Source: Octopus vulgaris
Lineage: Eukaryota
Assembly: GCA_951406725.2 (NCBI GenBank)
Contig: OX597837.1
Location: 14,446,001 to 14,510,000 of the forward strand
Direction of reading: 5' to 3'
Length of the DNA stretch: 64,000 nt
Shown here: in pieces, positions 61,432 to 63,415 of the stretch
How the letters are laid out: every line of letters starts with the position of its first letter
How positions within the stretch are numbered: position 1 is the stretch's first letter
Notes under the pieces: model-generated
Seen by the model: the letters and a program-made list of their open reading frames with translations, nothing else
What the model was told of the DNA's origin: nothing
Databases searched by the model: none
Made by a program: the position numbers and the translations under genes

Positions 61432-61587
61432 GATAGATAGATAGATAGATAGATAGATAGATAGATAGACAGACAGACAGATAGATAGATAGATAGATAG
61501 ATAGATAGATAGATAGATAGATAGATAGATAGATGGATAGATAGATAGATAGATAGATAGATAGATAGATAGATAGATAGATAGATA
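61432..61587. repeat. (GATA)n array flanking the LINE 3' end
   Basis: Direct reading. Confidence 0.97.
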
Positions 61588-62852
61588 TGTTTCTTTATTA
61601 GCCACACAGGGCTGCACACAGATAGAACAAATTACAAGGTAGAGCTTTTCTTTTGAAGGTTTAAAAAAAAAAAAAAAAAAAAAAAGGAAGGGGGAGTTTC
61701 GATCAAAAGGGATCGTAAAAGGAGAGAAAGAGGACAAAAAAGGGGCGGTTAAAAAAAAGGGGGGAGAAAAAAATTGATCAATAGGGATCGTTATCACAGA
61801 AATGTCAATATGAAGTGTAAAGGGGAGGACAGGTGAGGTTTACCCGTGGAAAGAAAAGCCTACGGAAAAGACCACGGTAACCTCGGTCAATGAAGTCACA
61901 TTTTATATTTCTTTTTTTTTTTTTTTTTTTTGCAAATAAGCAACTCTCTGTTTTCGATTTCTGGGTTCATAGGACTATGCTCAAGGTGGCTTCGTCATTC
62001 ATACGTGCCATTCTTGCTACATTCACCCATCTTTTTTTAAAACATTCGCTAGACAAAACTTGCCTCTCTACTCTCACTTTCCTTTTCAAGTGGTACTTGA
62101 AGAAGTTGATGAGAGATTGACCAGAGAGGAAAGTGTTTGTCTCCAATCCTTTCAGACGCGTCCACCAGATACATTCCTTCGCCATAGCCACAAGGATGAT
62201 GAAAATAGCTCTTCCTTCCCGTTTGAAGGAAGGAGGCGTGACAATATTGACGATAGACTCAGCTGATAAACCTACTCGTCCCACACGTGACAGCAGTTGT
62301 TCGACATAAGCCCACAGGTCGGAAATTGTTGGACACTGAACGAGTGCGTGCAGAACGGTTTCGTCGCTCTGACCGCATCTCGGGCAGGTCGGCCCCGTGT
62401 TTCTCGAGCCGTGTCTGTAGAGCTTATCCCGAACGGGTAGCGCTTCTCGGTAGCACTGCCAGGCCAGGGATCTCTGGAAGTTGTCCATGGGCCCTGGCCC
62501 GAAAGTCGTCCTGAACAGGCGGGTCAGGTACTCCTCGTCGACGTCCAGGTTCGCCCCGAGCTCGTCGTCGTACCTCCCCTCCACTAAACCCCTATAGAAT
62601 GCTTTGGTTGTGTTGAAGTCACTTAAGGTCGACCCAGGACGGCAGAGTTGCTTGAGAGCAACGCGACACTCGCGGTGCCATTCGCCCTTCCTCGGCCTCT
62701 TTTTGATCCACGACTGCAGTTCGGTCATGGAGACGAGCTGCGGGAAAGCGTGCCTCACAAACGGCGACCACACCTGTTCACCGTCGTCTACATAGAGCCA
62801 GAGGTGCCGCAGTCTCAGCGCGTGTCTGCGCATCATCAACCACGGCATGCCC
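61588..62852 (-). mobile_element. Young 5'-truncated L1/Tx1-like LINE inserted in (GATA)n
   Basis: Uninterrupted ORF2 C-terminus and a ~380-nt 3' UTR ending AATAAAGAAACA with no poly(A); (TATC)n directly abuts both junctions. Confidence 0.92.
61967..62848 (-). CDS. Truncated LINE ORF2 C-terminal region with zf-RVT-like CCHC finger (not a host gene)
   Basis: 293 aa without stops; [16 protein letters not shown]...[18 protein letters not shown]...LW. The first Met is the internal (GGL)GMP motif, since the preceding codon is GGC. Confidence 0.85.
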
Positions 62853-63415
62853 GATAGATAGATGGATAGATAGATAGACAGATAAAGAGATAGATAGATA
62901 AATAGATAGATAGATAGATAGATAGATAGATAGATAGATAGATAGATAGATAGATAGATAGATAGATGGATAGATAGATAGATAGATAGATAGATAGATA
63001 GATAGATAGACAGACAGACAGATAGATAGATAGATAGATAGATAGATAGATAGATAGATAGATAGATAGATAGATAGATAGATAGATAGATAGATAGATA
63101 GATAGATAGATAAATAGATGGATAGATAGATAGATAGATAGATAGATAGATAGATAGATAGACAGACAGACAGACAGATAGATAGATAGATAGATAGATA
63201 GATAGATAGATAGATAGATAGATAGATGGATAGATAGATAGATAGATAGATAGATAGATAGATAGATAGATAGATAGATAGATAGATAGATAGATAGATA
63301 GATAGATAGATAGATAGACAGACAGACAGATAGATAGATAGATAGATAGATAGATAGATAGATAGATAGATAGATAGATAGATAGATAGATAGATAGATA
63401 GATGGATGGATAGAT
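62853..63415. repeat. (GATA)n array flanking the LINE 5' junction
   Basis: Direct reading, ~560 bp. Confidence 0.97.

Follow-up and report, generated by a model that had tools for sequence, protein, structure and literature searches.

Octopus vulgaris carries a young L1/Tx1-type LINE family that probably targets (GATA)n/(TATC)n microsatellites, with an endonuclease that nicks the GATA strand where such a repeat already exists and so primes reverse transcription. That a real (GATA)n-targeting element exists is well supported by comparison of its copies across the genome; what is new is the target, while the habit itself is already known from other elements. The starting point was a single insertion in a stretch of 64,000 nucleotides of contig OX597837.1 (the window), from which an earlier note had proposed GATA targeting by a Tx1-like LINE. 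Genome-wide counts now support that proposal: the last 62 bases of the young element occur 3,254 times in the genome, and TATCT comes next in 3,122 cases (95.9%).

The window insertion

The window copy (Table 1) corresponds to the last fifth of a full-length element of about 6.06-6.09 kb. On the minus strand its 3' junction reads ...AATAAAGAAACA/TATCTATC and its 5' junction ...TATCTATC/GGGCATGCC; both arrays share one orientation, and that beyond the 3' end reads TATCTATC... in register from the last base of the LINE. The earlier note had described co-oriented TATC arrays at both junctions, which is exactly how the sequence reads, and the stop-free frame that it counted at 293 codons has 294, or 293 if counted from the Met. 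Because a pure array hides duplications, no target duplication can be seen at this locus, and it is from duplications at other copies that we infer the 61432..61587 array to be target DNA. No paralogous empty site was found for the insertion, the right flank being single-copy in the genome, and the other GATA arrays in the window have no such LINE adjoining them.

Table 1. Features of the LINE insertion and its flanking arrays in the window
Feature	Position	Strand	Details
3'-side (GATA)n array	61432..61587	.	156 bp; 35 GATA, 3 GACA, 1 GATG units
Young L1/Tx1-type LINE copy, 5'-truncated	61588..62852	-	1,265 bp
3' UTR with T-rich tracts	61588..61966	-	poly(A) tail absent at junction
AATAAA hexamer, candidate polyadenylation signal	61594..61599	-	ends 6 bases before 3' junction
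ORF2 C-terminal 294 codons and stop	61967..62851	-	stop-free frame 62851-61970
zf-RVT Cys-His zinc-binding region	62312..62470	-	fragment residues 128-180; Pfam E 2.9e-8, above cut-off
(GATA)n array at truncated 5' junction	62853..63415	.	563 bp; 120 GATA, 11 GACA, 6 GATG, 3 other units

The window copy is 97.1-99.1% identical in DNA to 20 other copies (0.9-2.9% difference), and its ORF2 fragment matches residues 852-1145 of a natural, intact ORF2 (L045; P0001) with 0 differences over 294 residues. This low divergence, in DNA and in protein, indicates that the family is young.

Two older relatives that the earlier note had placed outside GATA arrays, at 10690 and 44060 (about 10690-11630 and 44060-45225), do lie outside them, and both are distant members of other families. 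The first (10690-12200, plus strand) is heavily decayed, is interrupted by a GA repeat and ends without a GATA array. The second (44060-45530, plus strand) is also decayed, with 36% protein identity; its apparent 3' end enters (ATC/ATT)n, not TATC, and it possibly represents a sister lineage that differs in target or tail. The window further holds a tandem repeat of about 7 copies of a 98-bp unit (933-1627) and, at 135-176 on the minus strand, an abundant SINE-like repeat, present also at L041:9670-9720, whose tail resembles the last 42 bases of the LINE (86%).

Full-length copies and coding capacity

A genome search with the 3' UTR returned 854 candidates, of which 40 were scored (95-100% identical) and 34 examined. 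The full-length copy that the earlier note had wished to see recovered exists naturally in several instances of 6.06-6.09 kb (L031, L039, L047, L250, L254 and L257). Both frames are open in L250, where an ORF1 of 674 aa with a visible CCHC knuckle (C-x2-C-x4-H-x4-C) lies upstream of an ORF2 of 1,144 aa. Pfam found no match in this ORF1 and gave a weak match, below the cut-off, to a variant ORF1. ORF2 consists of an N-terminal APE endonuclease, a reverse transcriptase (RT) and a C-terminal zinc-binding region, with Pfam domains above the cut-off in L045 and L250 (Exo_endo_phos, E 3e-14; RVT_1, E 2e-30; zf-RVT). Aligned to human L1, residues N8, E37, Y112, D141/N143, D202 and D226/H227 and YADD at 685-688 are in place, which we take to be the catalytic motifs of the endonuclease and RT. 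A single-sequence AlphaFold model of the endonuclease reached a pLDDT of 35, too low for structural use.

Copies of the family share 5' truncation, a fixed 3' end and target-site duplications, and have no LTRs; by these sequence features we class it as an APE-type non-LTR retrotransposon of the L1 group. A poly(A) tail was found in 0 of 30 copies checked. A sister family at 82% identity (L036) likewise ends on TATC. Three copies (L032, L033 and L252) have in common a different 5' half, with another 5' UTR and ORF1 start, joined to the young 3' part at one point, which in the L039 reference copy is close to position 1548. The same alternative half occurs on the 82% sister family in L050, and by their shared structure the three copies appear to form a recombinant subfamily that has multiplied.

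A fixed 3' junction and variable 5' breakpoints

We counted exact matches over the whole genome to the last 62 and the last 24 bases of the LINE, the shorter of which also catches older subfamilies. The family numbers at least 3,254 young copies by the 62-base end; matches shorter than 45 bases, most of which the 62-base count should leave out, made up 1 of 30 in the positional sample described below. The 3' junction is base-exact (...GAAACA/TATC), and the TATCT-followed ends divide between strands as 1,508 versus 1,614. The 24-base end occurs 6,052 times, with TATC next in 5,379 (88.9%) and (TATC)3 in 3,977 (65.7%); against a background of 0.50% for TATC and 0.105% for (TATC)3, taken over strand positions of window 1-61400, the enrichment of (TATC)3 is about 600-fold. 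For target-specific Tx1 elements, the accessible part of PMC4494074 uses the criterion of one sequence type in more than 20% of flanks, and here a single repeat type follows 96% of the 3,254 ends and 89% of the 6,052. The genome count of (GATA)5, 32,697, covers only runs preceded by a non-A base (3 of 12 in the window), too narrow a basis for a firm share of occupied arrays.

TATC does not come next at 673 of the 24-base ends (11%), of which 361 continue with TAT and A, G or T and 91 with a base other than T. Thus 5,961 of 6,052 ends retain the first T and 5,740 retain TAT, including ends at sites that are not arrays. By subtraction, ends that lie outside the 62-base set continue with TATC in no more than about 81% of cases, a lower share to which decay of old flanks could have contributed. 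Older subfamilies, 70-85% identical to the young copy, often lie in unique DNA beginning TAT and look laxer in their choice of target; insertions in unique DNA come mostly from these subfamilies and, with the 11% of ends that lack TATC, mean that the preference is not absolute. Of the 91 non-T ends 30 were read, and 15 of these still resemble a TATC flank in which one base is changed or a few are added. In five of those read, (CA)n adjoins the 3' end (L111, L117, L123, L136 and L140), and at L113 the end adjoins an oppositely oriented GATA repeat; such ends may reflect rearrangement or genuine insertion off target.

At the 5' side a TATC array is present in 31 of the 34 top-scoring copies, the exceptions being L004, which lies at a (TAT)n run and has gained no TATC, and L032 and L033, where the different 5' half follows instead. 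In a positional sample, the first 30 copies along contig C1, chosen without use of their flanks, the 3' side begins TATC in 26 and a clear 5' array is present in 22 (17 of 21 and 5 of 9); the other four of the nine-copy subset have an array 38 bases off, a short TATCT, a decayed run and an ambiguous junction. Young copies in random or non-GATA flanks, which the earlier note had named as the finding that would speak against GATA targeting, are not the rule: TATC accompanies young copies at both ends, at the 3' side in the 3,122 ends counted above and at the 5' side, within 35 bases, at 47 of 52 non-full-length junctions from a mixed sample of loci. TATC arrays meet the LINE at dozens of distinct 5' breakpoints between positions 922 and 5881, and in the copies compared the arrays on either side differ widely in length, each independently of the other, from a few bases to more than 500. 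Microhomology at the 5' junction was considered as a feature and dropped, the mean of 0.73 over 33 junctions showing no excess over the expected 0.61.

Target duplications place the repeat in the target

Duplications that include non-repeat letters are visible at copies lying at array edges, mostly with a long array upstream (L091 and L098, 13 bp each; L120, 15; L143, 14; L148, 16; L159, 9; L167, 11; L170, 8). Others, in unique DNA, start with TAT (L053, 9 bp; L058, 12-16; L069, 14; L072, 12; L074, 11). In all these copies the 8-16-base duplication begins with the base that directly follows ...GAAACA, so the flanking repeat would have belonged to the target, and we regard it on this sequence evidence as target DNA and not as an element tail. 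The duplications with non-repeat letters likewise lend support to the view of the earlier note that the array pre-existed as the target. Many other off-target copies have no clear duplication, most of them older and with uncertain 5' ends.

Newer copies were found inside the flanks of older ones (L002, L013, L032, L046, L091 and L250). Chains of 5-9 co-oriented young copies per 15-55 kb occur on contig C1 (about 60.40-60.45, 71.61-71.62 and 84.37-84.39 Mb) and in L042 and L046, a pattern that fits successive insertions into the flanks of copies already present. Contigs of four public runs were aligned to the 5' flank of L041: those of X2, X4 and X6 end some 22-25 bases into the array without aligning to the element, and X1 has no coverage of the flank, which is at most a weak hint of empty alleles.

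Relationship to known elements

Residues 1-873 of ORF2 match two metagenome elements inserted in U2 snRNA genes at 352 bits (L175) and 399 bits (L177), as against 182 bits (E 1e-52) for human L1 ORF2p, the best relative with a solved structure (PDB 8sxt and others); this difference favours membership of the Tx1 clade. The Tx1 label of the earlier note is supported to the extent of this similarity to U2-inserted Keno-type elements. A quick tree of 52 RT sequences, which included no named Tx1 or L1 reference and has an unreliable root, places the three octopod sequences together with six unnamed relatives (support 99) and apart from the branch that holds the U2 elements, and descent from Keno is to that extent unsupported. 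The closest named relative is a protein of Argonauta hians, 68% identical over the RT region, in keeping with an octopod host. No named Tx1 protein was among the matches of the protein search, which include relatives at 40-54%, and a search of the ESM Atlas found only unnamed APE-RT clusters. A GATA array of at least 16 bases is absent from all 71 metagenome relatives, which are distant (mostly about 25-35%). One of the metagenome relatives has U1 snRNA at the end of its locus (L188:9076-9230).

Keno is described, in the accessible parts of two papers, as an APE-type element of the Tx1 clade that inserts into U2 snRNA genes (PMC4494074, PMC4640811). L175 and L177 are correspondingly joined to U2 snRNA (L175:4675-4885 and L177:5815-5977; Rfam U2, 92 and 96 bits). 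The U2 flank of these Keno-type elements starts GTATCTG and so has TATCT in common with the flank of the octopus LINE, whereas they combine a poly(A) end with an RNA-gene target and the octopus LINE lies between TATC arrays and not in U2.

Microsatellite targets are known within Tx1, where Kibi and Koshi use (TC)n and (TTC)n in teleosts and a crocodilian group (Tx1-1_Crp, Tx1-5_Crp and Tx1-2_AMi) uses (TTCC)n or (TTTC)n, as reported in the portions available of PMC4494074 and PMC3812793. These are two-ORF APE-type elements of the Tx1 kind with microsatellite specificity, as is the octopus LINE, and the crocodilian targets are also tetranucleotides with the pyrimidine-rich strand following the 3' end. 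However, (TATC)n/(GATA)n is not among their targets, and it is by its target that the octopus family is set apart from them. Other lineages show the same kind of specificity with other targets, namely Waldo for (ACAY)n, Mino for (AC)n and Dong for (TAA)n (PMC3812793, in part), and the NeSL-related Togen for (TG)n (PMC4640811, in part); Waldo and Mino belong to the R1 clade, according to a title cited there. Human LINE-1 resembles the octopus LINE in its APE, RT and C-terminal Cys-rich layout, its 5' truncation and the length of its duplications, but has a weak target preference (PMC3812793, in part) and a poly(A) tail where the octopus LINE has a fixed TATC junction and none. GATA is absent from the target lists in the parts of PMC4494074, PMC3812793 and PMC4640811 that are accessible, and our literature search returned no paper on a GATA-targeting LINE; Repbase, Dfam, subscription reviews and supplements fall outside its coverage and could record one. 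The accessible text on Octopus vulgaris repeats lists 13 recently active L1-Tx1 families, and the word 'target' does not occur in it (PMC13282606), while that of PMC8967140 deals only with L1-Tx1 expansion.

Mechanism and alternatives

Our model builds on the established process of target-primed reverse transcription. The endonuclease would nick the GATA strand between units, at 5'-GATA/GATA-3', and the freed 3' end would prime cDNA synthesis at the 3' end of the element RNA. A second nick some 8-16 bases away on the TATC strand would create the duplication, and cDNA synthesis would usually halt early, leaving a truncated copy that joins the upstream array without extra microhomology. The minimal site would apparently be TAT, with TATCT strongly preferred. 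Arrays would remain on both sides of each insertion, where later copies could pile in and build co-oriented chains. The reading of GATA probably lies with the endonuclease itself, and endonuclease-set specificity has been reported for TRAS1, SART1, R1Bm and Tx1L (PMC1919474, in part). The mechanism by which APE-type elements find microsatellites is called poorly understood in the accessible part of a review (PMC3812793).

The alternative closest to this model keeps insertion into GATA arrays and moves the choice to the RNA, with read-through UAUC units pairing with the nicked GATA strand and a lax endonuclease that recognises little beyond ATA. RNA is normally cleaved some 10-30 bases past the polyadenylation hexamer, and with AATAAA only 6 bases from the end of the LINE the transcript would therefore carry the target repeat; the lack of poly(A) in the copies checked fits with this, as does the retention of T and TAT even at non-array sites, and a similar role for repeat tails has been proposed for RTE elements (PMC6007223, in part). 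Pairing with distal units should, however, at times add a TATC that the target did not contain. We took 30 of the 189 copies in which one TATC is followed by a break, and at the 23 visible 5' junctions found no such added unit; in all five informative copies (L143, L148, L159, L167 and L170) the first TATC lies inside the duplication, and the L004 site has no TATC at all. A choice driven by RNA is on balance unlikely. Slightly less so, though still doubtful, is a partly RNA-guided element, in which the transcript brings a few UAUC units from its old landing site and these pair, at the new site, with the GATA strand after it is nicked. From sequence alone, choice by the endonuclease cannot be told apart from pairing through the initial UAU(C) of an RNA that reads through.

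It is quite improbable that the element makes the arrays, either by carrying or adding a TATC tail or through slippage that expands a short duplicated motif on both sides. The widely and independently varying array lengths would suit such an origin, and microsatellites are known to arise from LINE tails (PMC3812793, in part). Against it, copies that are 98-99.7% identical are already flanked at either end by arrays hundreds of bases long that contain variant units, L091, L098 and L120 have 8-14 repeat bases at the 3' side and a long array upstream of the duplication, newer copies sit in the flanks of older ones, and GATA arrays elsewhere in the window stand without the element. Long arrays are hard to assemble, and the insertion might in principle reflect a mis-join of two GATA arrays, or else random insertion with preferential survival in repeats. 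We give such explanations almost no credence: thousands of copies, nearly evenly divided between strands, share one base-exact 3' junction with the same phase and orientation but have differing 5' breakpoints and target duplications, and a survival bias is unable to fix phase or strand. Endonuclease-led insertion into pre-existing GATA arrays is the reading that we carry forward.

Implications

With this family, which lives in a mollusc, (GATA)n joins the few microsatellites that LINEs are known to target, and the family offers thousands of young copies as well as natural ones in which the reading frames are open. Its many on- and off-target junctions, its laxer older and stricter younger subfamilies and its intact endonuclease make the mechanism of targeting testable. 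If the element is partly guided by RNA, each in-register insertion would supply the guide for the next, and the passage from laxer older subfamilies to the 96% of young copies would represent a tightening of specificity within one octopod lineage. The family also matters for annotation of the octopus genome, since GATA arrays turn into nests of LINE copies that share one orientation, and a GATA marker can harbour a LINE insertion allele.
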